Part shown: positions 4,469-64,000 of the stretch, piece by piece
How positions within the stretch are numbered: position 1 is the stretch's first letter
How the letters are laid out: the number at the start of each line of letters is the position of its first letter
Source of the DNA: Alphaproteobacteria bacterium
GTDB taxonomy: Bacteria > Pseudomonadota > Alphaproteobacteria > UBA828
Assembly: GCA_963667785.2 (NCBI GenBank)
Contig: CAXXMU010000001.1
Location: 352,001 to 416,000 of the forward strand
Reading direction: 5' to 3'
Length of the DNA: 64,000 bases
Translations under genes and position numbers: made by a program
Notes under the pieces: model-generated
The model's input: only the letters and a program-made list of their open reading frames with translations
Databases searched by the model: none
What the model was told of the DNA's origin: nothing

Positions 4469-4773
4469 TGGTCTACAGCGTTCAGCAGATCAAGTACGAG
4501 ATCCTCGCCTACATCAGGGAGTTCGGCGGGGACTTCGGCGACTACTACGTGGGAATAGCGGCCGACCCTAAGAAGACCCTTCTCGACGTCCACAAGGTGG
4601 ACGAGGCCGCCGATCCCTGGCTCTACAAGCAGGCGCTCACCTTCTACGCCGCGCAGACGGTCCAGGACTACTTCCTGCGCCGGCTCAAGGCCGACGGCGA
4701 GCCGGTGCGCGACGGCGACGAGGATATGGACTGCGTCTATGTCTACAAGAAGAGCGAGCGGACCGTCCCGTAG
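4468..4773 (+). CDS. Hypothetical protein (101 aa), coupled to the Rieske-like gene
   Basis: TGATG stop/start overlap; host-like codon usage; YYVGIAADP...CVYVYKK. Confidence 0.75.
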   Translation: MVYSVQQIKYEILAYIREFGGDFGDYYVGIAADPKKTLLDVHKVDEAADPWLYKQALTFYAAQTVQDYFLRRLKADGEPVRDGDEDMDCVYVYKKSERTVP

Positions 4774-4807
4774 CGGGCGGCGCCGGGCGAAGGCCGGCGA
4801 GGCCGGC

Positions 4808-5500
4808 GTGAGGGCGGCGCGCGCGGAGCGCGAGGCCGAAGCGATCGAGGAGGGGCGCCGCGCCTACATGGCCCGCGACTTCGAGCGGGCGCGGGCTCTC
4901 TGGCTGCCGCTCGCCGAGGCGGGCAACGCCGAGGCCCAGGCCTGGGTCGGCTCGCTCCATGCCAACGGGGACGGCGTCGAGGCCGACGCGGCGGCGGCCT
5001 TCGCGTGGTATCTCAAGTCGGCCGAGGGCCGGAACGTGCTGGCCCAGAGCAACGTCGGCGCGATGTACGCCATGGGCAGCGGCGTCGCCCAGGACATGGC
5101 GGAGGCGGTACGCTGGCTGCGCCGCGCGGCCCGCGGCGGCGACGCCAACGCCCGCTTCAACCTCGGCGTGCTCTACGGCCAGGGCAACGGCGTGCCCCGG
5201 AACAACGCCCGCGCCGCCGAGTGGTACCGCAAGGCGGCGGAAACGGGGCACTACCAGTCCCAGGCCCGTCTCGGCCACATGTACCTGGCGGGCGAGGGCG
5301 TGAAGAGGGACCGCGTGCAGGCCTTCCTCTGGCTCTCGCTCGCCGCCCGGCACGGCATCGGCAGCGCGCTCACCGCCCTCGAAGCGGTGGTCAAGGAGAT
5401 GTCCTCGGACGAGAAGGCCGCGGGCATGCGTCTCGTCGCCCAGTGGCGCGGCAGGGCGGACGGCGAGGCCGACGTGCTCATCGATCCGGTGCCCGTCTGA
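4808..5500 (+). CDS. Sel1-like repeat (TPR) protein
   Basis: Four repeats of the type AxAGNAEAQ..LG.LY..G.GV..D...A..WY.KAA; GTG start uncertain. Confidence 0.88.
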   Translation: MRAARAEREAEAIEEGRRAYMARDFERARALWLPLAEAGNAEAQAWVGSLHANGDGVEADAAAAFAWYLKSAEGRNVLAQSNVGAMYAMGSGVAQDMAEAVRWLRRAARGGDANARFNLGVLYGQGNGVPRNNARAAEWYRKAAETGHYQSQARLGHMYLAGEGVKRDRVQAFLWLSLAARHGIGSALTALEAVVKEMSSDEKAAGMRLVAQWRGRADGEADVLIDPVPV

Positions 5501-27167: not shown

Positions 27168-27659
27168 TCAGCCGACGCCGCCTCCGGCGGATGACGCGCC
27201 TTCGCTGCCGGAGGCGGAGGTGCCGCCTTCTGCGGTGTCGCCCCGTCTCCGCTTCTGGCCGAGGCCGATCTGCTTCGCGAATTCCGAGCGCCGTCGCGCG
27301 TAGTTGGGCGCGACCATCGGGTAGTCGGGGTCGAGCCCCCATTTCGCCCGGTATTCGTCAGGGGTCATGCCGTAGGTCGTGCGCAGATGCCGCTTCAGCA
27401 TCTTCAGCTCGCGGCCGTCCTCGAGGCAGATCAGGTAGTCCGGCGTGATCGACTTCTTGATCGGCACGGCGGGCTTCGGCGGCGGCGCGGCGGCGGCCTC
27501 GCCGGCCTGCGCCTGCCGCAAGGACGCATGAACAGTACGAATGACTTCCGCAAGCTCCGTAGGGGCCACTGTATTATTGCCGACATAGGCCGTCACGACA
27601 TCGGCAGTCATACGTAACAGATCATGGTCAGAGATCGGCGCTTCTGTCTGGTTACTCAT
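27168..27659 (-). CDS. mucR: MucR/Ros family transcriptional regulator
   Basis: PAVPIKKSITPDYLICLEDG..LKMLKRHL..YGMTPDEYRAKWGL..DYPMVAPNY. Confidence 0.93.
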   Translation of the reverse strand: MSNQTEAPISDHDLLRMTADVVTAYVGNNTVAPTELAEVIRTVHASLRQAQAGEAAAAPPPKPAVPIKKSITPDYLICLEDGRELKMLKRHLRTTYGMTPDEYRAKWGLDPDYPMVAPNYARRRSEFAKQIGLGQKRRRGDTAEGGTSASGSEGASSAGGGVG

Positions 27660-27698
27660 TTCAGTTGCTTTATCGTTGACGAGTAGATAGTTGACCTA

Positions 27699-40194: not shown

Positions 40195-41424
40195 CTACTC
40201 GAAGCCGCAGGCCGCCGCGCTCGTGCCGATCGATGCCCAGCGGCCGTCCTGCGTGCCGAAGCAGCCGTCGCGCCACTCACCCTTGAAGGTAGTACCGTCG
40301 CCCTGGACGTAGGTCCCTTGCCCGTGTGGCTTGCCGTCGCGCCAGTTGCCCTCGTAGCGCTCGCCGCTGGCCTCGGTGAAGGTTCCGTAGCCGTGCTGCT
40401 TGCCGTCGCGAAGCTCGCCCTCGTAGCGGAAGCCGTTGGCCCAGGTCAGGACCCCCCGCCCGTGCATCTTGCCGGCCTCCATGCCGCCTTCGTAGACCCC
40501 TTCGCCGCCGCGGTACACCAGCTTCCCTTCGCCCGAGGCCTTGCCCTCGACACAGGCGCCCGTCCAGGTGAAGGGCTCGTAGTCCCGGTTGCCGTAGTTC
40601 CAGACTTCGCAGGGCTGGTTCTCGGTGATGGACCAGTCCGCGCCCACGCGCGGGGGCGTGTCCGCCGGCCGCGGCGCTGCGTCGTCCTCCTGCACCGCCT
40701 CCGGTACCGCCTCCTGCCGCGTCGCCCTCAGGAGCGGTGCGTAGATGAAGGCGGTGCCGCCCTGGAAGGCGACCCGCAGCCAGTCCCGCCCCCTGACCTC
40801 GCCGGTCACGCGCAGCTCGTCGCCGGCCCCCACCGTGCCGATGATGTCGTAGTCAGGGCTCGGGCCCGTCCTCAGATTGGCGGCTTCCGACGCCCTCATC
40901 AGACGGTTTGCCTGCTCGATCCTGTAGCGATCCGCCGGCGGGCCTTCCTGCGCCGGCTGCTCTCCCTGCTCGCTGGCGACCGGATCGTCCGGGCCGGGGC
41001 CGTCGGTGCCGCACTTGCCCCGCTCGTAGGAGAAATGGACGACGCAGGCTCTCGCCTGCTCCTCGAACAGCGGCAGGCAATCGGGGAACGCGCGATTGTC
41101 CGTCTCCGACAGGAACTCGGTGTTCTCCCTGCAGAGCGCGATCTTTCGGTCGATGGTGCCGAGGCATTGCTGGCGCTGCGCGGGAAGCTGTGTGTAGATC
41201 ACGCCCGCGATATCGCCGTGTCTGGGCTTCACGATCCGCCCGTCGGAGGCCTCGCACCCGAAGACGAAGTCTTCGATATGCGTCTCCGTCGCCTCGGCGC
41301 CCGACCAGACCATCGACGCGGCAAGCGCTGCCGTCGCGGCCGCGAACAGCGTGGCGCTGCCGCCGCGCGGCACGGTGCGCAGGAGCCGTGCCGGTCGCGC
41401 TATATCAAAAATGCGGGTCATCAT
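40195..41424 (-). CDS. Secreted protein: Cys-rich N-domain + SH3b domain + MORN repeats
   Basis: Signal-like hydrophobic stretch ending AEA; ANLRTGPS..Y.IIG...WLRV (SH3b); repeated YEG..RDGK.HG.G (MORN). Confidence 0.8.
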   Translation of the reverse strand: MMTRIFDIARPARLLRTVPRGGSATLFAAATAALAASMVWSGAEATETHIEDFVFGCEASDGRIVKPRHGDIAGVIYTQLPAQRQQCLGTIDRKIALCRENTEFLSETDNRAFPDCLPLFEEQARACVVHFSYERGKCGTDGPGPDDPVASEQGEQPAQEGPPADRYRIEQANRLMRASEAANLRTGPSPDYDIIGTVGAGDELRVTGEVRGRDWLRVAFQGGTAFIYAPLLRATRQEAVPEAVQEDDAAPRPADTPPRVGADWSITENQPCEVWNYGNRDYEPFTWTGACVEGKASGEGKLVYRGGEGVYEGGMEAGKMHGRGVLTWANGFRYEGELRDGKQHGYGTFTEASGERYEGNWRDGKPHGQGTYVQGDGTTFKGEWRDGCFGTQDGRWASIGTSAAACGFE

Positions 41425-41507
41425 GCGCCCACTATAGTACAGACAGACGCCCGGCTGTGTCGCTACCGTGACAAGGCGGTTGGCGGCGTGCGAAAGGAAG
41501 GCCGCCG

Positions 41508-41927
41508 ATGGATGCCGACGAGATCATCGCCCGCTACGCGCTCGCGCCGCATCCGGAGGGCGGCCACTACCGCGAGACCTATCGCGCCGTCGCCGAAGAC
41601 GGCGGCCGCGGGGCGGTGACCGCCATCTACTACCTGCTGAGGGAGGGCGAGGTCTCCCACTGGCACCGGGTCGACGCGGTGGAGATCTGGCACTACCACG
41701 CGGGCGCTGCGCTGATGCTGGAGCTCTCTCCCGACGGTGTCGGGATCACCCGCCACCGGCTGGGCGCCGGCGCCGGCGCGGAGCCCCAGGTGACGGTTCC
41801 CGCCCGCGCCTGGCAGAGCGCCCGGTCGGAAGGCGACTGGACGCTGGTCGGCTGCACTGTGGCGCCGGCCTTCGAGTTCTCGGGCTTCGAGCTTGCGCCG
41901 GCCGGCTGGCGCCCCGGACGCCGGTAG
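41508..41927 (+). CDS. Cupin domain protein (DUF985/YML079 family)
   Basis: LAPHPEGGHYRE, TAIYYLL, SHWHRVD..EIWH, LVGCTVAPAFEF. Confidence 0.9.
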   Translation: MDADEIIARYALAPHPEGGHYRETYRAVAEDGGRGAVTAIYYLLREGEVSHWHRVDAVEIWHYHAGAALMLELSPDGVGITRHRLGAGAGAEPQVTVPARAWQSARSEGDWTLVGCTVAPAFEFSGFELAPAGWRPGRR

Positions 41928-51006: not shown

Positions 51007-51063
51007 GATAAATAGTGCGTACCAAGCTCGGCCGGATTGGTGTTTTTTCCGTAAATACCGGAG
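51007..51063 (-). promoter_or_regulatory. Bipartite conserved motif, copy B
   Basis: Reverse complement CTCCGGTATTTACGGAAAAA-N22-TACGCACTATTTATC; 18/20 and 14/15 identical to the boxes of copy A. Confidence 0.6.
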
Positions 51064-51194
51064 TATGTCGGCCACGGCGCATTCGCGCCGCCGGCACGGC
51101 CGAAGCCTCGCCGAGCGTGCGTCCGGTGCGCCGCAGCGGTCGACCGGAGGCTGCGGGGGTTGGGGCGCGGACCGGGTCAGCGAAGGAGGAGGCC

Positions 51195-53549
51195 GTGAAC
51201 GAGGCCGGCGAACCGGGGCACGAGGTCGAGGCGCTGCGCGAGCGTATCTCCGCGCTCAGCGCTGCGATCCTGCGCATCAGCGCGAGCCTCGACGTCACCA
51301 CCGTCCTGCAGGAGGCCGTCGACAGCGCCCGCGTGCTGACCGCCGCGCGCTACGGCATCATCACCACCATCGACGAGGCGGGCGAGGTGCGCGAGTTCGT
51401 CACCTCGGGCTTTACCCCCGAGGAGAAGCATCAGTTCGTCGACTGGCCGGACGGGCCGAAGCTGTTCGCGCATTTCCGCGACCTGCCCGGCCCTGTCCGA
51501 CTCACCGACCTCCCCGCCCTGGTCCGCTCCCTCGGCTTCTCCCCGGACCTGATGCGCTCCAGGACCTTCCAGGGCACGCCGATGCGCCACCGGGGTGTCC
51601 ATGTCGGCAACTTCTTCCTCGCCGAGAAGGAGGGAGCGCCGGCGTTCACGGACGAAGACGAGGAGATCCTGCTCCTGTTCGCAAGCCAGGCGGCGACCGC
51701 CATCGTCAACGCCCGAACCCACCGCGACGAGCAGCGGGCACGGGCCGACCTGGAGGCGCTCATCGAGACCTCGCCGTTCGGCGTCGTGGTGTTCGATGCC
51801 CGGAGCGGCCGGCCGGTTTCCGTCAACCGCGAGGCGCGGCGCATCACAGAAGGCCTGCGCACGGCCGGTCGCCCGACGGAGGCGCTGCTGGAGGTGGTCT
51901 CCGTCCGCCGCGCCGACGGCCGCGAGGTGTCGCTCGGCGAGTTCCCCATCGCGGAGCGGCTCAACATCGGCGAGACGGTGCGTGCCGAGGAGATCGTGCT
52001 CTCGGTGCCGGACGGGCGCAGCGTCCGCACGCTGATCAACGCGACTCCGATCCATTCCGCCGATGACGGCATCGCCTCGGTCGTGGTCACCATGCAGGAC
52101 CTGGCGCCGCTCGAGGAGCTGGAGCGGCTGCGCGCGGAGTTCCTCGGCCTGGTAAGCCACGAGCTGCGCGCCCCGCTGGCGTCCATCATGGGCTCGGCCG
52201 CCACGCTTCTGGAAGAGGCGGCGGACCTCGATCCGGCGGAGATGCACGAGTTCCACCGCATCATCCGTGAGCAGGCCGGGCACATGCGCGGCCTCATCGG
52301 CGCCCTGCTCGACGCCGGGCGCATCGAAGCGGGCACGCTCTCGGTCTTGCCGGAGCCCTCGGAGGTTGCCGCGCTGGTGGACCGTGCGCGGAACACCTTC
52401 CTTTCCGGCGGCGGCCGGCACACCCTGCACATCGACCTGCCGCAGGACCTTCCCCGGGTGATGGCCGACCGCCGGCGCATCGTGCAGGTTCTGAACAACC
52501 TTCTGTCCAACGCCGCGAGGCACTCGCCGGAGTCCTCCCCGATCCGGGTCTCGGCCGAGCGCGACGGCGTTCACGTCGCCGTGTCGGTTTCCGACGAGGG
52601 CCGGGGCGTCGCGCCCGAGCAGCTGCCGCACCTCTTCCGCAAGTATGCCGACTCCGGCGGCGGCGAGCGCGCGACCGCAGGAACCGGCCTCGGGCTCGTC
52701 ATCTGCAGGGGTCTGGTGGAGGCTCACGGAGGCCGCATCCGCGCCGAGAGCGGTGGCACCGGCCAGGGTAGCCGCTTCACCTTCACCCTGCCGGTGGTCG
52801 AAGACATGGGTGAGGGCGAAGCCCCCCGTTCCGGCCGCCGCTCCGCCGCTCCGACGTCCGATCGGCGCGAGCCCACCCGCATTCTGGTGGTGGACGACGA
52901 CCCGAAGACACTTCGCTACGTGCGCGACATCCTCAGCGAAGCGGGCTACCCCCCCCTCGTGACGGGCGACCACGCGGACCTCTCCCACATCATCCGGACC
53001 GAGAAGCCATCCCTCGTCCTGCTCGACCTCATGCTGCCCGGCACCGACGGGATCGCGCTGATGGAGAGCGTGCCGGAGCTTGCCGACCTGCCGGTCGTCT
53101 TCATCTCCGGCTACGGACGTGACGAGACCGTCGCGAGGGCGTTGAAGGCGGGCGCCGCCGACTACATCGTCAAGCCGTTCTCACCCACCGAGCTCATCGC
53201 CAGGGTGGAGGCGGCGCTCCGACGCGTCGCACGCCCCGAACCCTTCGCGCTCGGCGAGCTCGCCATCCACTACGAGTCGCACCGGGTCACGGTCGCCGGG
53301 CGCGAGGTTATGCTCACCGCGACGGAGTACGAGCTACTGCGCGTCCTCTCGCTCAACGCGGGACGGGTCGTTACCTACGAGGCGCTGCTGCGCCAGGTCT
53401 GGGGCGGCCGCGAGGCCGGCGACATGGATCTCATCCGCAACTTCATCAAGAAACTCCGGGCGAAGATCGGCGAGGACGCGGCGAACCCGACCTGGATATT
53501 CAACGTTCGCGGGGTCGGCTACCGCATGGCCAAACCGGGCGAGGGGTGA
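51195..53549 (+). CDS. Soluble hybrid kinase: GAF-PAS-HisKA-HATPase-REC-OmpR/PhoB DNA-binding domain
   Basis: AAGGAGG RBS; FTDEDEEILLLFASQAA (GAF), VSHELRAPL, QVLNNLLSNA, GTGLGL, LVVDDD..LLDLMLP..DYIVKPF, LTATEYELL..LLRQVWG..NVRGVGYR. Confidence 0.92.
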   Translation: MNEAGEPGHEVEALRERISALSAAILRISASLDVTTVLQEAVDSARVLTAARYGIITTIDEAGEVREFVTSGFTPEEKHQFVDWPDGPKLFAHFRDLPGPVRLTDLPALVRSLGFSPDLMRSRTFQGTPMRHRGVHVGNFFLAEKEGAPAFTDEDEEILLLFASQAATAIVNARTHRDEQRARADLEALIETSPFGVVVFDARSGRPVSVNREARRITEGLRTAGRPTEALLEVVSVRRADGREVSLGEFPIAERLNIGETVRAEEIVLSVPDGRSVRTLINATPIHSADDGIASVVVTMQDLAPLEELERLRAEFLGLVSHELRAPLASIMGSAATLLEEAADLDPAEMHEFHRIIREQAGHMRGLIGALLDAGRIEAGTLSVLPEPSEVAALVDRARNTFLSGGGRHTLHIDLPQDLPRVMADRRRIVQVLNNLLSNAARHSPESSPIRVSAERDGVHVAVSVSDEGRGVAPEQLPHLFRKYADSGGGERATAGTGLGLVICRGLVEAHGGRIRAESGGTGQGSRFTFTLPVVEDMGEGEAPRSGRRSAAPTSDRREPTRILVVDDDPKTLRYVRDILSEAGYPPLVTGDHADLSHIIRTEKPSLVLLDLMLPGTDGIALMESVPELADLPVVFISGYGRDETVARALKAGAADYIVKPFSPTELIARVEAALRRVARPEPFALGELAIHYESHRVTVAGREVMLTATEYELLRVLSLNAGRVVTYEALLRQVWGGREAGDMDLIRNFIKKLRAKIGEDAANPTWIFNVRGVGYRMAKPGEG

Positions 53550-53673: not shown

Positions 53674-56235
53674 CTAGAACCGCCGGCTGTAGCGCGCGAG
53701 GATCGAGACTTCCCGTTCGCCCGCCACGTGTCCCGCGTCGTGCGAGGCGACCGCGGCCATGTGCGCCCGGCCGCCCGCCCAGGGACGCGAGTACGCGACC
53801 TCGAGGTCGAGTTGGCGGCCGGAGGGCTCGAGCCTCAGATCCGCCCGCTCGATCTCGACCCCTCCGCCGGGGCTCCGCCCGGACACCCACCGCAGCGCCG
53901 CGCGCCCCGCCTCGACGCGCAGCGGCTGCGACAGCCGGAACGCCAGCCGGTCGCCGCTCCGCCCGATATCCCGGCCCACGGCGCCCACCGCGAAGGCGCC
54001 GCTCCAGAGTCCCGATACCCCCCGCACGATGCCCTGGCGCAGACTGTCCGTCCGGTGCGTGCCGGCATGCGCGCTCCCCAACAGCGTCCAGTCCCCGCCC
54101 AGACGACGGGACGCCGTGAGGCCCGCGAGGATCGTCCCCGTCCCGAGCTCGCCGAAGGCGCCCTCGGGCCGGCTCCCCACCGCCCCGTCCGCTTCCGACA
54201 TCCATCCCGCCTGCAGTGCGAGGCCCGAATCGGCGAGCCCGCCGAAGCGGTACTCGGTGAGGGCGCCCGCGATCCCGTCGCTGCGCGCATCGGGCTGGCC
54301 GCCGTCCGGCCCCGTGGCCGCGAACGCCGCGATCCGGAGCGAGCCGGTGCCCAGGGGCGACGCCAGGCCGAGGCTGGTCCCGTCGCGGGCGAAGCCGAGA
54401 TACGGATTGGCGAATGCGCCGGCGTCGGCGAACGTGCCCGGCGCGAGCTCTCCCGCTTCCGGGCCGAACCGCGAGGCCAGCCGGCTGCGGTATCCGAACT
54501 CAAGTTGGCGGCTGCCGAAGTCGTGCATGACCGACAGCGACGCGAGCGCGGCCAAGCCGTCACCGACATCGGCACCGTGCGCGGCCGGGACGACATCGAG
54601 GCGCACCTGCAAGTCGTGCCCGTCCACCTCCCACGGCGTCCCCCGGGGATCGCGCCCCAATGCTCTCAGGCGGTCTGCGAGCGAGGAGCCGGCGAACCCC
54701 GCCAGCCGAAGGTAGTCGTCGAGGCGGCGGAAGAACGGTGCATCGAGCTCGTCGAAGCTCGCCACGTGCGCCGAGGCGAGTCCGCGTGCGAGCGAGTCCC
54801 CGAAGGCCGGGCCCAGGTAGAGCGCGCTCTGCGCCTCCGGCGACGATGCGCCGGAGAGCGAGACGCCGGTCAGCATCCGCTGTCCCCCGACCGGCCGGGT
54901 GGCCGTATCGAGGTCCAGGAAGCCTTGGCCGTACACGTCGGCGTCCGCGTACACGCCCGTCCTGTCGGCAGTGGCGAGAATGCGCTCCACGATCTCGTCA
55001 TTGCCGAGCTGATTGCGAAAATGCTGGGCGAGAAGCCCGATCCCGCCCGTCACGAACGGTGCCGCCGACGAGGTGCCGGCCTCTTCGACCGTAATGAAAC
55101 ACTGCGATGCGCCGGCCTCGCAGTGGAACGCCGGTGCCGGACCCGTGATGTCCACGCCGGGTGCCGCCAGACAGAACGCCTTGGCGATCCCGCAGCGGTT
55201 GGAGAAGTCGGCGATCGTGCCATCCGGGTTCGTCGCCACGACCGCCAGCGAATGGCCCCGTAGCTCCGGGAGCCGCACCGAAAGCCCGGGCAGGGGCTCG
55301 ACCGAGCTCGCCGACACCGGCGACCCGTCCGGTCCGATCTCGCCGTGGGCGTTGCCGGCCGCCCAGACGTAGATCGTGCGCTCGGCGGCCGCGGCATCCG
55401 CCTGCGCCATCGCCGCGATGGCGTTGGGAAAGCGTTCCCGCAGCTCCTGTGCGTCGAAGTCCTCGATGTTGCCGGGAACGCCGAAGCTGCAGTTGACCGC
55501 CGTCACCCGGCCGTTCAGCCGGGAGAAGGCAATCCCGGTGTCCCGCTCCAGTTCCCTCTCGAGCTGCGCTTCGACATCGAGGACCCGCGCCTGGAGCTCC
55601 TCGATCTGCTCGGGCGTGGGGTTCTCCGGGTACTCCGCAACGATCTCGTCGATGACCTCCTCCAGGTCGCGCGATCCCACGCCCACCGATATGACCCTGG
55701 CGTCGAACGCGACCCCGTGAACGGGCGGCCCGCCTGCCGCGTCCGTCTCCGGAGTCTCCTGCCGTGCGGCGGCCATGATGCCCGCGACCAGCGTTCCATG
55801 TCCCAGCCCGCTGAAGCACGTGCCGTCGGGGCCGACCTCGTCGCAGGTGCCGAAGTCGGGGTCGTAGTCCCCGACGTAGCTCGCTTCGAGCTTGCCTTCG
55901 AACTTGGGGTGATCGGGATCGACCCCGGTGTCGACGATCCCGAGCGTCACGCCCTCGCCGGTCGCGCCGCGGGCGTAGGCGTAGTGCGCCTTGATCCGGG
56001 CGAGCCCATCCTGGTTGCGGAACTCCTCGTGGCTGGCGTACTCCCCGCGCCGTTGCTCTTCCGTCTCGGGATCGGGGGTTCCGTCGACTAGGCGCACCGT
56101 CGTGCTGGTACCGCAACCCGCGAGCGCCAGGGCGAGAATCAGGACGACGGCGGGGGCTCCCGCCGCTCGGGCCGCCGCCCGGCGGGCTCGCGGTTTCGAA
56201 GCCGTGTGTCGGGTCGCCCACCCCACGCGTGTCAT
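53674..56235 (-). CDS. Lipoprotein S8 (subtilisin) serine peptidase with C-terminal beta-barrel-like domain
   Basis: Lipobox LALAGC; catalytic GIVDTG, GHGTLVAG, WAAGN, GTSSAAP; amphipathic strands ending ILARYSRRF. Confidence 0.88.
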   Translation of the reverse strand: MTRVGWATRHTASKPRARRAAARAAGAPAVVLILALALAGCGTSTTVRLVDGTPDPETEEQRRGEYASHEEFRNQDGLARIKAHYAYARGATGEGVTLGIVDTGVDPDHPKFEGKLEASYVGDYDPDFGTCDEVGPDGTCFSGLGHGTLVAGIMAAARQETPETDAAGGPPVHGVAFDARVISVGVGSRDLEEVIDEIVAEYPENPTPEQIEELQARVLDVEAQLERELERDTGIAFSRLNGRVTAVNCSFGVPGNIEDFDAQELRERFPNAIAAMAQADAAAAERTIYVWAAGNAHGEIGPDGSPVSASSVEPLPGLSVRLPELRGHSLAVVATNPDGTIADFSNRCGIAKAFCLAAPGVDITGPAPAFHCEAGASQCFITVEEAGTSSAAPFVTGGIGLLAQHFRNQLGNDEIVERILATADRTGVYADADVYGQGFLDLDTATRPVGGQRMLTGVSLSGASSPEAQSALYLGPAFGDSLARGLASAHVASFDELDAPFFRRLDDYLRLAGFAGSSLADRLRALGRDPRGTPWEVDGHDLQVRLDVVPAAHGADVGDGLAALASLSVMHDFGSRQLEFGYRSRLASRFGPEAGELAPGTFADAGAFANPYLGFARDGTSLGLASPLGTGSLRIAAFAATGPDGGQPDARSDGIAGALTEYRFGGLADSGLALQAGWMSEADGAVGSRPEGAFGELGTGTILAGLTASRRLGGDWTLLGSAHAGTHRTDSLRQGIVRGVSGLWSGAFAVGAVGRDIGRSGDRLAFRLSQPLRVEAGRAALRWVSGRSPGGGVEIERADLRLEPSGRQLDLEVAYSRPWAGGRAHMAAVASHDAGHVAGEREVSILARYSRRF

Positions 56236-56350
56236 CGGTTCCTTGCCCCTCGCCGTTTCGGAGTCAGTCCCGGACAATCCGTCGATGACCCACCCGCGCA
56301 GCGGTGTGCAGGAGCGTAGCCGCATACGGGGACAATAGGCGGAACAGTGT

Positions 56351-56397
56351 GAAAATTGTGTGCTATATCGACTAAAGTAAGTATCTTTTCCGTATAT
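56351..56397 (-). promoter_or_regulatory. Bipartite conserved motif, degenerate copy C upstream of the S8 peptidase
   Basis: Reverse complement ATATACGGAAAA...GCACACAATTTTC; box spacing 2 nt shorter than copies A and B. Confidence 0.4.
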
Positions 56398-56460
56398 TTC
56401 ATCGGCTCCGGGTAAGCGGTAAGAGCGCACCACCCTCGACGTCAAGTCGGACTTGAGGTG

Positions 56461-56497
56461 GGCGTAGGGTGTTGTTAAGCGTGGAAAACTGACCCCC
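56461..56497 (+). mobile_element. 37-bp inverted repeat, left copy (IS21-like terminus)
   Basis: ggcgtagggTGTTGTTAAGCGTGGAAAACTGACCCCC; 33/37 identical to the reverse complement of 59262-59298. Confidence 0.7.
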
Positions 56498-56529: not shown

Positions 56530-56665
56530 CTCGACGGTTGCGACGATCGCATCCTGTCGCTCTATGCGCGCGGCATGACGGTGCGCGAGATCCAGGGTCA
56601 CCTGCGGGAGCTCTACGGCGTCGCGGTCTCGCCTGACCTGATCAGCCGGGTGCCGAACGCGATTG
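56530..56665 (+). pseudogene. IS256-family transposase internal fragment
   Basis: DDRILSLYARGMTVREIQGHLRELYGVAVSPDLISRV, characteristic of IS256 (mutator) transposases; truncated at both ends. Confidence 0.85.
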
Positions 56666-56671
56666 TTACCT

Positions 56672-56735
56672 GCAACTCGCACGCACCGACGTGCGCGAAT
56701 GGATACGGCAGGCCTCGCCGGGTCGGCCCTCCTGC
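56672..56735 (+). repeat. Orphan fragment of the conserved leader
   Basis: caactcgcacgcaccgacgtg...cggcaggcctcgccgggtcgg matches 59576-59632 caacttgcacgcatcggcgtg...cggcaggcctcgccgagtcgg. Confidence 0.6.
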
Positions 56736-56739
56736 GCCG

Positions 56740-56876
56740 GCGGTGCGGCATCGCCACCAAGCACCTCGACAGCTATCTCAGGCGGTTCCATCTCATCGCT
56801 CTCGGCAATCCGCCCGCCGAGAGCGTGTCTCGAGGCGGCGATGACCAACCCAGGTCTACGTTTCGCAAACTGAGCC
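56740..56876 (+). pseudogene. IS1595-family transposase C-terminal remnant with probable terminal repeat
   Basis: GIATKHLDSYLRRFHL, then after a frameshift RACLEAAM...RFAN*; ends tttcgcaaactgagcc. Confidence 0.7.
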
Positions 56877-57239
56877 TAATTTTTGGCCAATTTCCCCAAA
56901 GTTGGGGACGCGAGAAAATCTGAAGTCTTCTAATACTTGTAATGACAGGGGCCCAGGCACTGCGCGGAACAATGTCTTGTCGTTTCCGCCGGGAGTTGAT
57001 GACAGCGAGTGTGCAAAGGAAGCCCATGAGGTGCGGCGTCGTCCCGGCCTTACGCGCCTACGTCGGAACCCGGCTGATGCGAAGAGCCGTCGAGGCGCCC
57101 GCACGGCGTGGCGCCGGACGCGATTCTTCCCGGCGACCCGCACGCGCTGTCGTGGGCGAACGGTTCCTGCAGGCCTTGCCGGGCCGGCTCTTCACCCATG
57201 CTGCCACCCCGGTCCCGGCTTCCGGAAAGGACGTGTGAA
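56861..57239 (+). repeat. Conserved 379-nt non-coding leader, copy 1
   Basis: Direct repeat of 59303-59681; includes identical ccaatttccccaaagttggggacgcgagaaaatctgaagtcttctaatacttgt; ends in GAAAGGA RBS. Confidence 0.85.
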
Positions 57240-57878
57240 ATGAAGACGCGACGATCGATTCTCGGCCTGTTGGCATTCGCAGCGATCATGGTCGTGGCGG
57301 GCGCAGCCCACGCTGACTGCTGGGGCGACAATAGAGTGACTTTTCATCATTCCGAGTGTCTGCACGGCTGGTGGGACAATAATGACTGGCCCAGAAAAAG
57401 TACTTTCGGAGCTCAAGTTCAAAACGATTGCCACCTATGGGGCACGGTGGTTGCTAAAGTTGACCTGGCGAGTTGCTCGGACAAGACGTGGCACCTCAAC
57501 AACACCAGTAAGAGAAGAGGCAGTGAAGCTTGTCGAGTCAACGGCATCCATTGCTGCAAAGATGTCGGAGACTTGTGCAACAAGAGCGATCTCGTGACCA
57601 TAGATGGGTGCACGAGCCAGTGGAACAGCAGTCCCGCAAGCGATACGTGCTACCTTTCAGGCGGTGAAACTACTGTGTTCGGCACGATAATGGGAACTGG
57701 TGTGCAATCCGTCACCGCGTCGAGCGCCAACTACACGTGCAGTTTCTGGGCCAAATGCCAGCAAATAGGACCCGACTGGACCCAGCAGGAAAACGCGACT
57801 TCGATCAAGGACGTGCACTGGCTCGATGCTGACGATGTGGTCAATTGCAATGGGGTGTTGAAGGAAGATTCGTGTTGA
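57240..57878 (+). CDS. Secreted cysteine-rich protein, paralog 1 (212 aa, 14 Cys)
   Basis: Sec signal MKTRRSILGLLAFAAIMVVAGAAHA; RBS; two paralogs downstream; codon usage less GC-rich than host. Confidence 0.88.
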   Translation: MKTRRSILGLLAFAAIMVVAGAAHADCWGDNRVTFHHSECLHGWWDNNDWPRKSTFGAQVQNDCHLWGTVVAKVDLASCSDKTWHLNNTSKRRGSEACRVNGIHCCKDVGDLCNKSDLVTIDGCTSQWNSSPASDTCYLSGGETTVFGTIMGTGVQSVTASSANYTCSFWAKCQQIGPDWTQQENATSIKDVHWLDADDVVNCNGVLKEDSC

Positions 57879-57941
57879 AGCAAGGGTGAAGACCACGTGC
57901 CTGACGGAAGTTCGTTCCTGGCAGGCGGGGTGGGGAGGGGA

Positions 57942-58084
57942 GCCCGCACGACGTGGCGCCGGACGCGATTCTTCCCGGCGACCCGCACGCGCCGTCGTGG
58001 GCGAACGATCCCTGCAGGCCTTGCCGAGCCGGCGCTTGACCTATGCCGCCACCCCGGTCCCAGCTTCCGGAAAGGACGCGTGAC
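57942..58084 (+). repeat. Conserved leader, partial copy 2 (3' 143 nt)
   Basis: Near-identical to 57097-57239 at a constant 845-nt offset. Confidence 0.85.
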
Positions 58085-58729
58085 ATGAAGATGCGACGAT
58101 CGATTCTCAGCCTGTTGGCATTCGCAGCGATCATGGTCGTTGCGGGCGCAGCCTACGCCTCCTGCACGGGCAGCAATAGAGTGAGTTTTCATCAGGCCGA
58201 GTGTCTGCATGGCTGGTGGGACAACAACCCATGGCCCGCGAAAAGCACCTTCGCAGTTCGAGTTAAAAACGATTGCCATCTATGGGGCACGGTGGTTGCC
58301 AAAATTGACCTGGCGAGTTGCTCGGACAAGACGTGGCACCTCAACGACACCAATAGGAGAAGGGGCAGTGAACGTTGTACAGTCAACGGCATCCATTGCT
58401 GCAAAGATGTTGGAGACTTGTGCAACAAGAGCGATCTCGTGACCATAGCGGGGTGCACGAGCCAATGGAACAGCAGCCCCGCAAGCGATACATGTGATCT
58501 CTCAGATGGGTCGACGTCGTCCGTCACTGCGGACACGGACGACCACACGTGCGATTTCTGGGCGAATTGCCAGTACACGGCGGACGACGGGACCACCCAG
58601 GAAAAAGCGACTTCGATCGGAGACGTGCACTGGCTCGATTCTGACAACCTGGTCAATTGCAATGGGGAGTTGAAGAAAAGTTACAATGATTGTACGTCAA
58701 CGGATGTAGTTCCGAATTGGCGACCATGA
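58085..58729 (+). CDS. Secreted cysteine-rich protein, paralog 2 (214 aa, 14 Cys)
   Basis: Signal MKMRRSILSLLAFAAIMVVAGAAYA; ECLHGWWDNN..W, TWHL, CCKDVGDLCNK, VNCNG.LK. Confidence 0.88.
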   Translation: MKMRRSILSLLAFAAIMVVAGAAYASCTGSNRVSFHQAECLHGWWDNNPWPAKSTFAVRVKNDCHLWGTVVAKIDLASCSDKTWHLNDTNRRRGSERCTVNGIHCCKDVGDLCNKSDLVTIAGCTSQWNSSPASDTCDLSDGSTSSVTADTDDHTCDFWANCQYTADDGTTQEKATSIGDVHWLDSDNLVNCNGELKKSYNDCTSTDVVPNWRP

Positions 58730-59261
58730 GAACCGCTTGCAAAACTCCCGGTCGCGATTGCCCATGAAGGTATCAATGCGAGAATTTGCCTAAGCTGCAA
58801 GCAAAACAGGGCGGAACTCTCTTCCGTCTCTCCAATGTCGAGAGCTGATCTGGCGACGGCGAGCCGATTCGACGGTGAGGGCCGTGTGCCAGGCGGATGA
58901 TGATGGCAACACCTTCATCGGGAAAGGAGCGACGCGCCATGGCAACCGAAAGTAGGATTCGCCGGAGGGGGGCCTGCGGGATTTCGCGGGATGGCGAGGG
59001 ATTCCGGCGGGACAGGCGGCCTTCATGTCCCACGCCGCCGCCGGCCTCCCCTCCCGCGCGCCGCTCCTTTCCGCTTGCCTGCGCCCTCGCCCATCATGCC
59101 GCCACTCTCGCACGACCGCCCCACGCTCTGCATCGCACCATGGTGCGGGGTATCCGGTCCTGTAAGCGCGCGCCAACCGACAAGAGGTCGGCCAAAGAGA
59201 GGGTCGGAAAGCAGGTCTGAAGCGCCCCCTGAATCAACCGCTCGATGTAGTCGCGGTCCTT

Positions 59262-59298
59262 GGGGGTCAATTTTCCATGCTTAACAACACACCACGCC
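59262..59298 (-). mobile_element. 37-bp inverted repeat, right copy (IS21-like terminus)
   Basis: Reverse complement ggcgtggtgTGTTGTTAAGCATGGAAAATTGACCCCC. Confidence 0.7.
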
Positions 59299-59302
59299 TG
59301 AA

Positions 59303-59681
59303 TTTCGCAAAATGAGCCTAATTTTTTGACCAATTTCCCCAAAGTTGGGGACGCGAGAAAATCTGAAGTCTTCTAATACTTGTGCTGACAGGGGTCGAGG
59401 CACCGCGCGGAACGACGTCTTGTCGTTTCCGCTAGGAGCCGTTGACAGCGAGTGTGCAAAGGGAGCCCACGAGGTGCAGCGTCATCTCAGACTTACGCGC
59501 CTTTGTCGGAACCCGGTTGGCGCGACGAGCCGTCGGTGCGCGCACGACCTGAGTGCCGGATGCGACTCTTCCCTTCAACTTGCACGCATCGGCGTGGGCG
59601 AACGAACGCGGCAGGCCTCGCCGAGTCGGTCCGCCGGACACGTCGCTACCCTGTTCCCAGCGTCCAGAAAGGAAATGTGAA
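59303..59681 (+). repeat. Conserved 379-nt non-coding leader, copy 3
   Basis: Direct repeat of 56861-57239, same length to the ATG. Confidence 0.85.
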
Positions 59682-60290
59682 ATGAAAACGCGATACCCAA
59701 TTCTCGGCTTGCTGGCATTCGTATTGATCGTGGCCATTGCGGGCGCAGCCTACGCCTCGTGCACAGGCAGCAACAGGATCACTCGCAGCAACGCCGAGTG
59801 TCTTTCAGGCTGGTGGAACAACAAGAGTTGGCCAAGTAACTCGACCTTTGGCGCGCAGAATCTGTGCCCGGACTGGGGAAAGGTCGTCGCGAAAGTGGAC
59901 ATCAAAAACGCCGGCGACAGGACGTGGCATCTCGCCGACGGCGGCAAGAGGCGCGGCAGCACCTCAAGCACGGTCCGTGACATATACTGCTGCAAGGATC
60001 TCGGCGACAAGATGTGCAACAAGGCTGACAGGGTCTCGGTGGATAGTTGCAAGACGCAGTTCGAGAAAAGCGCTGCCGACGACGACTGCGATCTCGACGG
60101 CGATCCGACCCTCGATGGTACTTCGTCTTGCGTGTTCGATATGACGTGCAACTATACAGGAAATGGTGGGGTAAACTACGAGTACGAGGGCAAACTCGGT
60201 TTATCCTGGCACCGCGCCGATGAGATCGTATTCTGCGGTGAACACATCGGAATACAACCGAGGATGTGGTTGACCACCGGCAGTTGCTGA
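59682..60290 (+). CDS. Secreted cysteine-rich protein, paralog 3 (202 aa, 12 Cys)
   Basis: Signal MKTRYPILGLLAFVLIVAIAGAAYA; ECLSGWWNN, WGKVVAKVD, TWHL, YCCKDLGDKMCNK. Confidence 0.88.
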   Translation: MKTRYPILGLLAFVLIVAIAGAAYASCTGSNRITRSNAECLSGWWNNKSWPSNSTFGAQNLCPDWGKVVAKVDIKNAGDRTWHLADGGKRRGSTSSTVRDIYCCKDLGDKMCNKADRVSVDSCKTQFEKSAADDDCDLDGDPTLDGTSSCVFDMTCNYTGNGGVNYEYEGKLGLSWHRADEIVFCGEHIGIQPRMWLTTGSC

Positions 60291-60405: not shown

Positions 60406-61872
60406 ATGAGCGAAGACGAACGGCGCCTAGGGTCCTGGCAGGGTGCCATCCTCCCGATGCGGCCCTGCATGCCCGCGTTCGTGCTGCTGCTCCTCGTGCC
60501 GCTGTTGGTGGCCTCCTGGTTGCCGGCGTCTGGACAGGCGCAGGAGGACGGCGGAGGGGCGGCACTCGAGCTGACGCTGGACGACGCGATCCGGCTGGCG
60601 CTGCATAACAACCGGGACCTGCTGGATGCGCGCCTCTCCCGCACCAACCAGGAGTTCTCCCTGGATGTGGCCGAGGACCGATACCGGCCGACGGCCGCCT
60701 TCAGCCCGGTCGTGCGGGCGGCGCGGGAGCGGGACACGACGGCGGAGCTTGCCGCCGAGACGGGGCTTCGGATCGAGACCGGCGGGCAGTTCTCGTTGCG
60801 CTTCTCGGAGCCCGTTGCGGGCCCGGACGACGCCGACGGGAGAGTCTCGCTCAGCTTCTCGCAGCCGCTGCTGCGGGGCTTCGGGATCGACATCGATACC
60901 GCCCCGCTGCGCATCGCCCGCCTCGGCGACAGGATCAGCGTCCTGGCGTTCCGCGAGACCATCGCCGGCGTCGTGGTCTCCACCATCAATGCGTGGCGCA
61001 ACCTGGTGCGGGCCAGGCGGCAGCTGGAGATCGGCGAGGCCTCGCTGGTGCGCGCCCGCCAGCAGCTCGAGACCAACCGCACGCTGATCGAGGCAGGCCA
61101 GATGGCGGCGCGGGAGATTCTGCAGAGCGAGGCGGACGTCGCGGACCGTGAGCTTGGCCTGGTGCAGACGCGGAACGGCGTGACGACGGCCAACTTCGGA
61201 CTGATCGACATCCTCGATATCGACAGCGCGACGGTGGTCCGCCCGATGGAGTTGCCCGCCGCGCCGCGGCCAACGCTCTCGCTGGCCGACGCGATCGAGA
61301 CGGCGCTCCGACAGTCGCCCCGCTATGCGCGCGCGCTGCTGAACAGGGAGATCGCGGAGATCGACCTGGAGTTGGCCGAGGACAACCAGCTCTGGGATAT
61401 GTCGCTGGATGCCGACGTGTCTCGGGGCGTGGGCGGGGGTGCCGGGGAGACGCACTATTCCGCGGGCCTGCGTCTGACCATCCCGCTGTGGGACCGCGAG
61501 CCCGAGCTCGGTCTCAGAGCGGCGCAGGCCGGGGTCACGCAGGCCGAGCGCGGGCTGGTGGAGCTGCGCCAGTCGATGGACATCCAGGTGCGCCAGGCAG
61601 TGCACGACGTTGAGGTGGGACTCAGGCAGATCGAGCTCGCCCGGCAGGCGCTCAGACTATCGGAGGAGAAGCTCGCGATCGAGCAGAGCAAGCTGCAACA
61701 GGGCCTGTCCTCCATCTTCCAGCTCGCCCGCTTCGAGGATGACCTGGTGCGGGCGCAGAACGCCGAGGTGGACGCACTCGTCGACTACGAGAACGCGCTG
61801 ACGGCGCTGGACCAGACGCTGGGCACGACGCTCGAGACCTGGGGCATCGCGGTGGAGCAGGTGGGGCGATGA
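60406..61872 (+). CDS. TolC family outer membrane efflux protein
   Basis: Signal peptide, LTLDDAIRLALHNN, FSQPLLRGFG, LSLADAIETALRQSP, two OEP-like repeats; start may lie slightly downstream. Confidence 0.88.
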   Translation: MSEDERRLGSWQGAILPMRPCMPAFVLLLLVPLLVASWLPASGQAQEDGGGAALELTLDDAIRLALHNNRDLLDARLSRTNQEFSLDVAEDRYRPTAAFSPVVRAARERDTTAELAAETGLRIETGGQFSLRFSEPVAGPDDADGRVSLSFSQPLLRGFGIDIDTAPLRIARLGDRISVLAFRETIAGVVVSTINAWRNLVRARRQLEIGEASLVRARQQLETNRTLIEAGQMAAREILQSEADVADRELGLVQTRNGVTTANFGLIDILDIDSATVVRPMELPAAPRPTLSLADAIETALRQSPRYARALLNREIAEIDLELAEDNQLWDMSLDADVSRGVGGGAGETHYSAGLRLTIPLWDREPELGLRAAQAGVTQAERGLVELRQSMDIQVRQAVHDVEVGLRQIELARQALRLSEEKLAIEQSKLQQGLSSIFQLARFEDDLVRAQNAEVDALVDYENALTALDQTLGTTLETWGIAVEQVGR

Positions 61873-63653
61873 CGGAGCCGCACACGGACGTCCACGGGCG
61901 CGTGCTGGAGAACCTGCTCGACGGGGTGATGGTGGTCGAGCTCGGCGGCACCATCGCGGTGTTCAATGCGGCGGCCGGCCGTATCCTGGGCATGGCGTCG
62001 GACGAGGTGCTTGGGAAGAGCTTCGCCGAGCTGTTCGTCCCGCACGAGGAGCTGGAAGAGTTCAGCGAGCTCGTGCTCGGCACCGTCGCGGGCGAAGGCG
62101 CGAGCGGCCGGCAGGTGGTGACGCTCGATCCCGGCGGCCAGCCGCGCTCGCTCTCGGTTGCGACCTCCTACATCAGGCAGACCGTCGACGGCGCGTCGGT
62201 GCCGATGGCGCTGGTCGCCGTCTTCAGCGACATCACCGAGCTCAGGGAGTTGCGCGAGACAGAGCTGCGCATGGCGAAGGAGGTGGAGGCGCAGCACACC
62301 GAGCTGCAGTCCGCCTACCGCCAGATCGAGGAGCGCAACGAGACCCTGGCCCGGATGCTGAAGAAGGTCCAGGTGGCGCGGATCATGGCGACGGTGTTGG
62401 TGATCGGCGTGTTCCTGGGGGCCGGCACCTACGTGTGGCAGCCGTTCGACCACGTCGATCTGCCGTTCATCGGCGACTCGTCGGGCTCGTCGATGATCGC
62501 CGAGGCCGGTGCCGATACCGAGAGCGGCCTCTACACCCTGACGGTGGAGCCCGAGCCGGTGCGCGAGACGATCTCGCTGTCTGGACGGCTCGAGCCGTGG
62601 CGGTCGGTCGCGGTGACGAGCCCGCTGGCGAGCCAGATCGCCGTCGTGCACTTCCGCCAGGGCCAGGAGGTGAAGGAGGGCGACCTTCTGATCGAGCTCA
62701 ACACGTCGGAGGCGGTCCGCCTGCACCGCGAGGCGCAGGTGAAGCACATCGAGGCGCTGAGAGCGTTCGAGACCGTCAGGGACTGGGAGAGCGGGTCCGA
62801 GATGGCCGAGGCCCGGCGCTCCTATGCGCGGGCGCGCATGGCGCTGGAGAGCCAGGAGAATCAGTTGAAGCGAGCCGCGTTTCTGCTGGAGCAGGGCCTG
62901 ATTCCCGCATCGGAGCACGAGGATGCGGAGCGCCAGTATCGGGGCCAGCTGCTGGACTTCGAGGCGGCCCAGGAGGATCTCGCCGCGGCGCGTGCCAGGG
63001 GCGGCGGGGAAGCGCTGGACAAGGCGGCGCTGGAGCTGAGGACCGCCGAGGAGGAGCTGCAGGAGCTGGCGCAGAGCCTGGGTCAGAGCCGCATCCATGC
63101 GCCGCTCTCGGGCGTCGTGCTGGCCCATTCCGGCACCTCGCGCCTGCAGGAAGGCAGGAACATCGGCAGGGGCGAGGTGCTGGCGACCATCGGCGACTTC
63201 AGCCGCATGGCGGCGACGGCCAAGGTCGACGAGGTGGACGTGGTGCGGATCGCGGTCGGCCAGCCAGTCTCGGTGACCGGCAATGCCTTCGGCGGCCTGC
63301 GCTTGCGGGGGACCGTGACCCACGTCGCTTCCCAGCCCGACCCCCGGTCGCGGGGCACGCCCCTGTTCGACGTGGCGGTGACGCTGGATCCGCTCGACGA
63401 GGAGCAAAAGGAGCGGATCCGCGCCGGCATGTCGAGCCGCCTCAGGATCGTCGTCTACAGCAAGGAGGCGGCGCTGATGGTGCCGCTCGAGGCGGTGGAG
63501 CAGCGGGGGCGCTCCTACTTGGTGAGCGTGGTCGACCCGTCGACCCGGGAGGTGGGCGAGCGGGAGGTGGTCATCGGACCGACCACCCAGGATTCGGTCG
63601 AGATCACGGCCGGGCTGCAGGCTGGCGACGAGATCGTGATTCGAGAACGATAA
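61869..63653 (+). CDS. PAS-domain-fused periplasmic adaptor (MacA/RND-type membrane fusion protein)
   Basis: ENLLDGVMVV..G.I..FNAAAGRILG...VFSDITE (PAS), coiled coil, one TM, then GQEVKEGDLL, IHAPLSGVV, VDEVDV, RAGMSS, GLQAGDEI; ATGA overlap with tolC. Confidence 0.88.
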   Translation: MTEPHTDVHGRVLENLLDGVMVVELGGTIAVFNAAAGRILGMASDEVLGKSFAELFVPHEELEEFSELVLGTVAGEGASGRQVVTLDPGGQPRSLSVATSYIRQTVDGASVPMALVAVFSDITELRELRETELRMAKEVEAQHTELQSAYRQIEERNETLARMLKKVQVARIMATVLVIGVFLGAGTYVWQPFDHVDLPFIGDSSGSSMIAEAGADTESGLYTLTVEPEPVRETISLSGRLEPWRSVAVTSPLASQIAVVHFRQGQEVKEGDLLIELNTSEAVRLHREAQVKHIEALRAFETVRDWESGSEMAEARRSYARARMALESQENQLKRAAFLLEQGLIPASEHEDAERQYRGQLLDFEAAQEDLAAARARGGGEALDKAALELRTAEEELQELAQSLGQSRIHAPLSGVVLAHSGTSRLQEGRNIGRGEVLATIGDFSRMAATAKVDEVDVVRIAVGQPVSVTGNAFGGLRLRGTVTHVASQPDPRSRGTPLFDVAVTLDPLDEEQKERIRAGMSSRLRIVVYSKEAALMVPLEAVEQRGRSYLVSVVDPSTREVGEREVVIGPTTQDSVEITAGLQAGDEIVIRER

Positions 63654-63667
63654 CCATAAGCTTCGCA

Positions 63668-64000
<333 letters not shown>

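Follow-up and report, generated by a model that had tools for sequence, protein, structure and literature searches.

Three neighbouring genes, here called g1, g2 and g3, lie within 57240..60290 of the window, by which is meant the whole stretch of 64,000 nucleotides (nt) of an alphaproteobacterial contig (CAXXMU010000001.1) that was analysed. They are members of a real, large and uncurated family of Sec-exported, Cys-rich proteins, which stands above chance because it comprises 334 sequence clusters, has ratios of nonsynonymous to synonymous divergence (dN/dS) below 1 and gives a confident AlphaFold2 (AF2) model. The preferred reading of their role, held tentatively at a probability of roughly 0.4, is that the proteins act as a binding module at the cell surface or outside the cell, after Sec export and oxidation in the periplasm. 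The genes are laid out as follows.

57240-57878, forward strand: g1, 212 amino acids (aa), with a signal peptide (1-25), an N-domain (ca. 26-118, 8 Cys) and a C-domain (ca. 119-212, 6 Cys).
58085-58729, forward strand: g2, 214 aa, the paralog used for modelling, with a C-terminal tail common to its own sublineage.
59682-60290, forward strand: g3, 202 aa, a divergent paralog without the accessory Cys pair.

In protein alignments g1 and g2 are 76% identical, while g3 shares 48% identity with each of them. None of the three frames is interrupted, and alignment reveals a conserved AGGA-type ribosome-binding stretch before each. The Cys residues (14, 14 and 12 in g1, g2 and g3) are all located in the mature part, Trp residues number 10, 9 and 7, and the mature proteins are acidic, with 23-26 Asp plus Glu against 14-20 Lys plus Arg. 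The N-termini, as read from the translations, carry a K/R-rich n-region, a hydrophobic core and an A-x-A motif, and the three proteins thereby show the basic n-region, hydrophobic h-region and small -3/-1 residues of Sec and signal peptidase I substrates. Across the family, a heuristic of our own making (a hydrophobic 10-mer and small residues at -3 and -1), used in place of SignalP, was applied to members with at least 15 residues ahead of the first Cys; it found the 10-mer in 166/166 and the small residues in 142/166. The commonest pattern at the cleavage site is A-x-A, then S, A or D, then Cys, and in g1-g3 the first conserved Cys stands two residues past the predicted site. A lipobox has G, A or S at -1 and L, V or I at -3 before the Cys; none is present in g1-g3, where the residue before the Cys is D in g1 and the -3 residue is H or Y, and a bacterial lipoprotein was consequently rejected. 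The three proteins end 0-11 residues beyond the last conserved Cys, with no barrel domain in the same polypeptide.

The genes also differ from their surroundings in composition. Their GC content is 0.54-0.57 against 0.696 for the window, and the GC content of third codon positions (GC3) is 0.64, 0.66 and 0.72 for g1, g2 and g3 compared with 0.86-0.93 in the three flanking genes measured. The low-GC tract extends from ca. 56250 to ca. 60300.

The size of the family was established by an exhaustive profile search of 1.84 billion cluster representatives (50% identity clusters), of which 334 were recovered at E<=1e-3, 249 at E<=1e-10 and 72 at E<=1e-30; a word-indexed search returned 45 relatives among 159 candidates. 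The sole name given to these relatives in any source is 'hypothetical protein'. Neither Pfam nor NCBIfam yielded a match to g1-g3 above cut-off, and when the 78 members of a diverse alignment were compared with Pfam no family appeared in more than three (DUF7666, E>=0.012, below the gathering threshold). PHROGs and PADLOC gave no match for the family, sequence-profile searches of the PDB gave noise only, and six-frame scans of the window with hidden Markov models (HMMs) found no copies beyond g1-g3. A description of the family was not found in the literature either; as there is no family name to search for, this speaks only weakly for its being undescribed.

Two domains, of different conservation, make up the typical member. 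Separate HMMs for the N and C halves, run on 192 proteins, identified N plus C in 94, N with a tail longer than 60 aa in 49, N alone in 36, N plus C with a further tail in 11, N plus two C-domains in 1 and C alone in 1; the majority of the 70-100 aa tails are diverged C-domains. Because the N-domain stands alone in 36/192 proteins it is, judged by these architectures, an autonomous module. An origin of the two halves by internal duplication was rejected (hhalign probability 0.2%). The six core Cys residues of the N-domain are kept in 92-99% of 181 N-domains. The accessory pair (C79 and C98 in g2) behaves differently, both residues being present in 31 of these domains, one in 1 and neither in 149, and from this joint presence and absence the two are therefore predicted to form a disulfide. 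It is the only disulfide that co-loss of Cys across the family resolves. Among 94 C-domains, five of the six Cys residues are kept in 97-100%, and the terminal one scores 50% because its alignment position shifts. Beyond the Cys residues, an Arg, an Asn, a Gly-x-Val-Val-x-Lys-x-Asp strand, an Asp-x-Thr and an Asp just past the invariant Cys-Cys doublet are conserved in at least 80% of N-domains. The acidic loop that follows the doublet might resemble the Ca2+-binding loops of other Cys-rich modules, a family of which was not matched by Pfam in the 78 members.

An AF2 model of g2, built with the 78-sequence alignment, has a mean predicted local distance difference test score (pLDDT) of 88.2 and a predicted template modelling score (pTM) of 0.76, with 168/214 residues at or above 90. 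The N-domain is modelled as all-beta, with seven strands, and the C-domain as alpha/beta, with two short helices, a long hairpin, a further helix and two short strands; the lowest-confidence mature stretch is an indel-rich loop at ca. 141-150. Foldseek comparison of this model with the PDB gave 0 matches at E<=0.001, the best E-value being 0.02 and the query-normalised TM-score (TMq) <=0.23 among the 50 matches listed, and comparison with BFVD likewise gave 0 matches at E<=0.001 (best 0.03). The fold of g2 is thus confidently predicted, has no solved relative in these searches and is possibly new. In the ESM Atlas, the clusters nearest to the homologue P0023 are CVNH lectins, with a score of 0.76 that is below the lead threshold, while a second homologue, P0036, falls near unnamed clusters of 122-130 aa (0.75-0.77). 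Structure matches of P0036 reach TM<=0.35, with beta-sandwich domains at TM 0.26-0.29, its Atlas model being poor.

These results bear out, on every point open to checking, the descriptive part of a first-pass annotation of the window. It had reported three paralogs of 202-214 aa with Sec signals at 57240..60290, and sizes, range and signals correspond to the open reading frames (ORFs) and translations. The conserved N-domain motif that it quoted is present in the alignments, its six-Cys C-domain is the more variable half (dN ca. 2x that of the N-domain), and the codon usage that it called less GC-rich than the host's is borne out by GC3 of 0.64-0.72 versus 0.86-0.93 in three neighbouring genes. 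The family that it regarded as uncharacterised has no Pfam, NCBIfam, PHROG, PADLOC, PDB-sequence or Foldseek match, and the profile and AlphaFold-plus-Foldseek checks that it had proposed were run and gave no full-length match to a characterised family.

Evidence on where the module acts comes largely from longer relatives. In 10/30 longer representatives a Calx-beta domain follows directly after the N plus C module. A search for longer relatives found Calx-beta in 8/9 matches, one of which, P0222, is also annotated in the database with the Autotransporter beta-domain PF03797, and our own scans found Calx-beta in 13/15 long forms. Calx-beta is described, in a passage of PMC11670116, as an Ig-like, typically Ca2+-binding and often extracellular domain. 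The Cys residues are confined to the module, with all 12 within the first 215 residues and 0-1 beyond in 8/9 long forms. At the other end of the protein, an aromatic terminal residue is a mark of outer-membrane barrels, and the C-terminal residue is F, W or Y in 12/20 long forms.

The relationship of P0222 to the stand-alone genes is clear from sequence, at 37% identity to g2 over 196 residues (E 3e-34) and 44% to g3 over 131 residues. Its AF2 model was built from an alignment of only 11 sequences and has a mean pLDDT of 64.5. The model contains a Calx-beta sandwich, a 26-residue helix and, between residues 435 and 835, ca. 19 long strands in antiparallel arrangement; for the blocks of ca. 430-680 the pLDDT is mostly 70-93. 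In Foldseek, Calx-beta domains (NCX, integrin beta4) match at a target-normalised TM-score (TMt) of ca. 0.8, and the best barrel match is the autotransporter beta-domain of BrkA (E 1.4e-5, TMt 0.56, 240 columns), with EspP also recovered (E 1.5e-4). A PDB sequence-profile search with the long relatives returned Calx-beta only. As modelled, the long relatives are anchored in the outer membrane and carry the Cys module at their extreme N-terminal end; 'autotransporter' would be the best, though not a clean, label for them.

The three paralogs have separate histories. In a maximum-likelihood tree of 45 rows g1, g2 and g3 fall into separate sublineages, and each has a closer orthologue elsewhere (g1 and P0009 at 86%, g2 and P0004 at 94%, g3 and P0195 at 74%, or 73% by BLASTP); they are therefore old lineages kept side by side and not recent local duplicates. 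A sublineage trait is visible at the C-terminus, where an 11-residue tail past the last Cys (58694-58726 in g2) is common to g2, P0004, P0005 and the copy in L001, one of five related loci (L001-L005) taken from species-representative genomes, and is lacking in the other paralogs. By the Nei-Gojobori method, the N-domain has a dN/dS of 0.10-0.52 and the C-domain one of 0.31-0.65. In sliding windows, values above 1 are confined to short parts of the C-domain with small counts, namely residues 138-156 (1.95 and 2.17) and 181-203 (1.22). Low GC3 is also seen in g1/g2-type genes of L002 (0.60-0.63), and g3-type genes in L003 and L004 have values of 0.84-0.86. A second family copy in L003 (655-1417) is a frameshifted pseudogene that has lost its first Cys and is, as its sequence reads, evidence of birth-and-death turnover in the family.

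Upstream of each gene is a conserved leader, and the region holds several repeats and the debris of an insertion sequence (IS).

56461-56497, forward strand: left arm of an inverted repeat (37 nt, arms 89% complementary) that flanks g1 and g2 on either side.
56542-56661, forward strand: fragment of an IS256-family (Mutator) transposase, at the left edge of the low-GC tract and just inside the left arm of the inverted repeat.
56861-57239, forward strand: conserved leader of g1, ca. 380 nt, 81% identical to that of g3.
57939-58083, forward strand: short leader of g2, which corresponds to the proximal portion of that leader (92% identity to 57094-57238).
59262-59298, reverse strand: right arm of the 37-nt inverted repeat.
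59303-59681, forward strand: conserved leader of g3.

The leader core is also found ahead of family genes in L002 (584-911) and L004 (55-365), and more weakly in L003. Synonymous divergence (dS) is a mosaic along g1 and g2. Between g1 or g2 and g3 it is 0.28-0.38 in the signal peptide and saturated in the mature part, which suggests gene conversion or recombination at the 5' end. The leaders of g1 and g3 (81% at the nucleotide level) and their signal-peptide codons are thus far closer than the mature coding sequence, a pattern that might stem from gene conversion at the 5' end, a promoter in common or the end of a mobile element. A structured RNA or riboswitch in the leader was considered and rejected, RNAalifold on five sequences giving a covariation term of +0.6 and single-sequence folding a z-score of -0.65; Rfam returned nothing for the leader at E<=1. 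Promoter and terminator scans gave counts no better than those in shuffles, with no site within the leaders.

For the inverted repeat, 0/100 shuffles reach two matches. An 83-nt direct repeat is present in four copies of 73-80% identity (56650-56732, 57111-57193, 57956-58038 and 59553-59635), of which each leader contains one and the fourth adjoins the IS256 fragment. The leaders in L002 and L004 lack the corresponding block of ca. 150 nt. Two ORF fragments, 56663-56923 and 59094-59342, have no match; a resemblance of the former to the end of an IS1595-type transposase is unsupported. The recognised mobile elements are limited to the IS256 fragment in the window and the C-terminus of an IS5 transposase beside the L001 copy. 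None of 72,556 plasmids or 50,697 phages gave a tblastn match to g2, and no tRNA lies near g1-g3.

Directly downstream of g3, on the same strand, are genes for parts of an export pump.

60406-61872, forward strand: TolC-like outer-membrane factor (Pfam OEP), starting 115 nt downstream of g3, a possible export partner.
61869-63653, forward strand: periplasmic adaptor of HlyD/MacA-like type with an N-terminal PAS domain.
63668-64000, forward strand: start of an ABC ATPase gene that runs past the window end, its Walker A motif read from the translation.

The 115 nt between g3 and the TolC-like gene hold no terminator-like site. Three of the five related loci come from one metagenome-assembled genome (MAG) labelled Alphaproteobacteria, one comes from another such MAG and one (L003) is labelled Chloroflexi. 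In L005, OEP, PAS-HlyD, ABC_tran and a MacB_PCD/FtsX permease come after the family gene; L003 has PAS-HlyD in that position and stops there; and in L002 two tandem family genes precede a LuxR-type regulator, OEP, ABC_tran and a ScsC/DsbA-like oxidoreductase. Pump genes are accordingly found directly downstream and on the same strand in 4/6 loci (the window, L002, L003 and L005). The window holds the OEP, PAS-HlyD and ABC ATPase start, the last with ABC_tran counterparts in L005 and L002, and L005 has all four parts of a MacAB-TolC-type pump (outer-membrane factor, adaptor, ATPase and permease). Between the pump-linked loci the TolC-like proteins are 48-73% and the HlyD-like proteins 66-81% identical, with the family protein at 52-57%. 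On this adjacency in 4/6 related loci, g1-g3 are possible cargo of the neighbouring pump.

Three observations belong beside the pump. The N-terminal, presumably cytoplasmic, PAS domain on a HlyD/MacA-type adaptor recurs in three genomes (window 61869-63653, L003 6899-8599, L005 3281-5041), which suggests a signal-gated pump. The gene for the ScsC_N/DsbA-like thiol:disulfide oxidoreductase of L002 (5837-6859) lies just past the pump genes, downstream of the two tandem family genes. In L003, labelled Chloroflexi, the family gene is 57% and the PAS-HlyD 81% identical to those of the window, with a copy nearly identical to one in L004, from an Alphaproteobacteria MAG; the L003 contig may be mis-binned or transferred.

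Taken step by step, the preferred reading would run as follows. Sec would export the g1-g3 proteins, signal peptidase I would cleave after A-x-A, and the 12-14 Cys residues would be oxidised in the periplasm to 6-7 disulfides, as the even and conserved Cys counts suggest. The protein would then be delivered to the cell surface or the medium, with the neighbouring pump, a type II system or neither as its outer-membrane route. There the module would bind a ligand, possibly in a Ca2+-dependent manner, such as a glycan or a matrix component. The literature describes cargo for two of the candidate routes: passages of PMC5985334 describe MacB-type pumps that export the Sec- and DsbA-matured STII from the periplasm, and the export of the 10-kDa dispersin by Aat, while type II secretion, the conventional route for them, exports folded periplasmic proteins according to excerpts of PMC10128026 and PMC5646246. 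Type II secretion system (T2SS) genes were not seen in the window or the loci.

The interpretive claims of the first-pass annotation were upheld in part. Its inference of extracellular binding proteins or toxins is plausible: the Sec signals, even Cys counts and Calx-beta/barrel fusions point to an extracytoplasmic location, where the proteins might bind a ligand or be toxic. Horizontal acquisition is partly supported, being consistent with the low GC3 and IS debris, but a recent event is opposed by the lack of a plasmid or phage copy and of a tRNA, and by the closer orthologues elsewhere. That the proteins are diversifying is weakly supported by the faster C-domain and the few small-count windows above 1, against domain-wide dN/dS of 0.10-0.65.

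A number of results weigh against the preferred reading. Structure searches recovered no lectin, adhesin or toxin fold, and a CVNH lectin was rejected, with PF08881 absent in the 78 members at E<=1 and no CVNH among the 50 Foldseek PDB matches listed. Autotransporter profiles remain just under cut-off in the long forms (Pfam 24.6 vs 26 bits in P0222, E 0.029 in P0221, TIGR01414 15.3 vs 16). The N-domain of P0222 is poorly modelled, with pLDDT <50 for residues 1-122, because only 11 sequences were aligned, and 22-strand TonB-dependent receptors and LptD match the P0222 model at similar E-values with lower TM. The classical type Va barrel has 12 strands and a pore helix; the modelled barrel of P0222 has >12 strands. 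Passages of PMC8419823 report that engineered disulfide-bonded autotransporter passengers stall in the outer membrane, which leaves room for a module that faces the periplasm in the fused forms. With respect to the pump, none lies within the stretches examined of L001 and L004, and synteny in the other loci may be inherited rather than functional because the four loci come from related genomes. In addition, PMC5985334, in the passage concerned, gives ca. 20 Å, the width of the 10-kDa dispersin, as the likely upper size limit of MacB/TolC cargo, so that a folded two-domain protein of 19 kDa may not fit the pump.

Of the alternatives, an envelope-resident protein survives best, and it is nonetheless rather unlikely. 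The proteins would stay in the periplasm, and the module of the fused forms would sit at the periplasmic face of the barrel, with a structural, chaperone-like, inhibitory or ligand-sequestering role and no relation to the pump; the family would then be an ordinary new domain of unknown function. This explanation accords with a Sec signal in g1-g3 that is accompanied by neither a dedicated secretion signal nor a barrel, with a fused-form barrel that is not a clear 12-strand autotransporter and with pump synteny that could be inherited. The Calx-beta fusions and the best barrel matches, to the BrkA and EspP beta-domains, point outward instead. Furthermore, paralog arrays, a fast-evolving C-domain and pseudogene decay are more typical of surface or secreted proteins. 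The stalling of engineered disulfide-bonded passengers during outer-membrane translocation (PMC8419823, in part) favours a periplasmic module, but Cys-rich type V passengers do exist, the chlamydial PmpD passenger having 18 disulfide-bonded Cys residues according to an excerpt of PMC6005502.

A secreted antimicrobial or cytotoxic protein of bacteriocin-like type, with the MacB-type pump as exporter, self-protection or both, is unlikely. In its favour, MacB-family pumps not only export STII but protect against the disulfide-bonded SDP peptide (passages of PMC5985334), the family genes are multi-copy, diverging and subject to birth-and-death turnover, and a pump adjoins them in 4/6 loci. Searches matched no toxin or bacteriocin family or fold, however, and the sequence between the paralogs holds no evident small gene of immunity-like type. 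The mature proteins have an acidic composition (Asp plus Glu 23-26 vs Lys plus Arg 14-20). The N-terminal place of the module in membrane-anchored Calx-beta proteins is also more in keeping with an adhesin than with a toxin that diffuses.

The most specific version of export combines both unusual associations: stand-alone members would be folded multi-disulfide cargo of a dedicated, PAS-regulated MacB/TolC-type pump, secreted in two steps at ca. 2x the size of the largest known substrate, and the fused module would be displayed by an unusually large autotransporter-like barrel. We consider this combination distinctly improbable. Were it true, the family would supply a new-fold, Ca2+-linked recognition domain and an unrecognised outer-membrane route for heavily disulfide-bonded proteins. 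Finally, chance ORFs or decaying remnants in IS debris, a reading to which the IS fragments and repeats of the region and the frameshifted L003 pseudogene (655-1417) might be brought, and under which the ORFs would be non-functional, are very improbable indeed, given intact frames with conserved ribosome-binding sites, dN/dS <1 vs orthologues, 334 clusters and a confident fold. The weight left over from the preferred reading and the first two alternatives falls to some explanation not considered here.

The wider neighbourhood is chromosomal, the window holding rpoA, the genes for ribosomal proteins S13 and S11, pgi and a MiaB-like gene. Upstream of g1-g3 lies a protease gene.

53674-56445, reverse strand: S8 subtilase, 923 aa, upstream of g1-g3 on the opposite strand.

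This subtilase has a C-terminal extension of ca. 400 aa that ends in F, and in its protease part it is similar, at scores below cut-off, to autotransporter serine peptidases. No PDB sequence matched the extension, and kinship with the barrel of the long relatives was rejected (hhalign probability 0.2%). A hybrid histidine kinase of GAF-PAS type, to which a receiver and an OmpR-type DNA-binding domain are fused, is encoded two genes upstream of the locus (51012-53546). The window also encodes a Sel1-repeat protein (4559-5497) and a MORN-repeat/SH3 protein (40198-41523), from repeat families that are often noted in host-associated bacteria. A regulator gene of the Ros/MucR family is located at 27171-27695 on the reverse strand. 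Such regulators, conserved in alpha-proteobacteria, have been proposed as xenogeneic silencers of AT-rich DNA (a passage of PMC7710501), and the low-GC tract of g1-g3 would be a candidate target.

If the preferred reading holds, the family would provide a new extracellular recognition domain, used both free and, in Calx-beta proteins anchored in the outer membrane, as the N-terminal module. A further question would be how Gram-negative cells pass a module with 6-7 disulfides over the outer membrane, for which an autotransporter-like barrel, a MacB/TolC pump and a type II system are candidates.

Comparison with known systems places the family near several of them. CVNH lectins are likewise small, secreted, disulfide-containing bacterial proteins, but the P0023 score of 0.76 is below the lead threshold and has no Pfam or listed Foldseek support. 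Type II exoproteins share Sec export and periplasmic folding with disulfides before the outer membrane is crossed (excerpts of PMC10128026 and PMC5646246); their link to g1-g3 is by analogy alone, no T2SS genes having been seen in the window or loci. Extracellular Calx-beta proteins resemble the long forms, which have one Calx-beta domain directly past the family module, whereas g1-g3 lack Calx-beta and the Cys-rich module is unrelated to it.

The cargo of MacB-type pumps (STII via MacAB-TolC and dispersin via Aat) offers another parallel, with a Sec-dependent precursor, periplasmic disulfides and a gene beside OEP, adaptor and ABC components, to which L005 adds MacB_PCD/FtsX. STII, however, is a small two-disulfide peptide and dispersin is 10 kDa, while g1-g3 are ca. 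19-20 kDa with 6-7 predicted disulfides, above the limit suggested in the same passages (PMC5985334). The adaptor beside g3 differs further in its PAS domain. With type Va autotransporter adhesins such as PmpD, the long relatives have their overall layout in common: the signal peptide is followed by an N-terminal Cys-rich module, then by a spacer domain and a long helix, and an outer-membrane barrel forms the C-terminus. The long relatives are unlike these adhesins in profiles just under the cut-offs, in ca. 19 strands and in a passenger that is a compact Cys module plus Calx-beta and not a beta-helix, and g1-g3 have no barrel at all. In effect, this is a new domain family within the familiar category of secreted or surface Cys-rich modules, set apart by its links to a large autotransporter-like barrel and to a PAS-regulated MacB-type pump.

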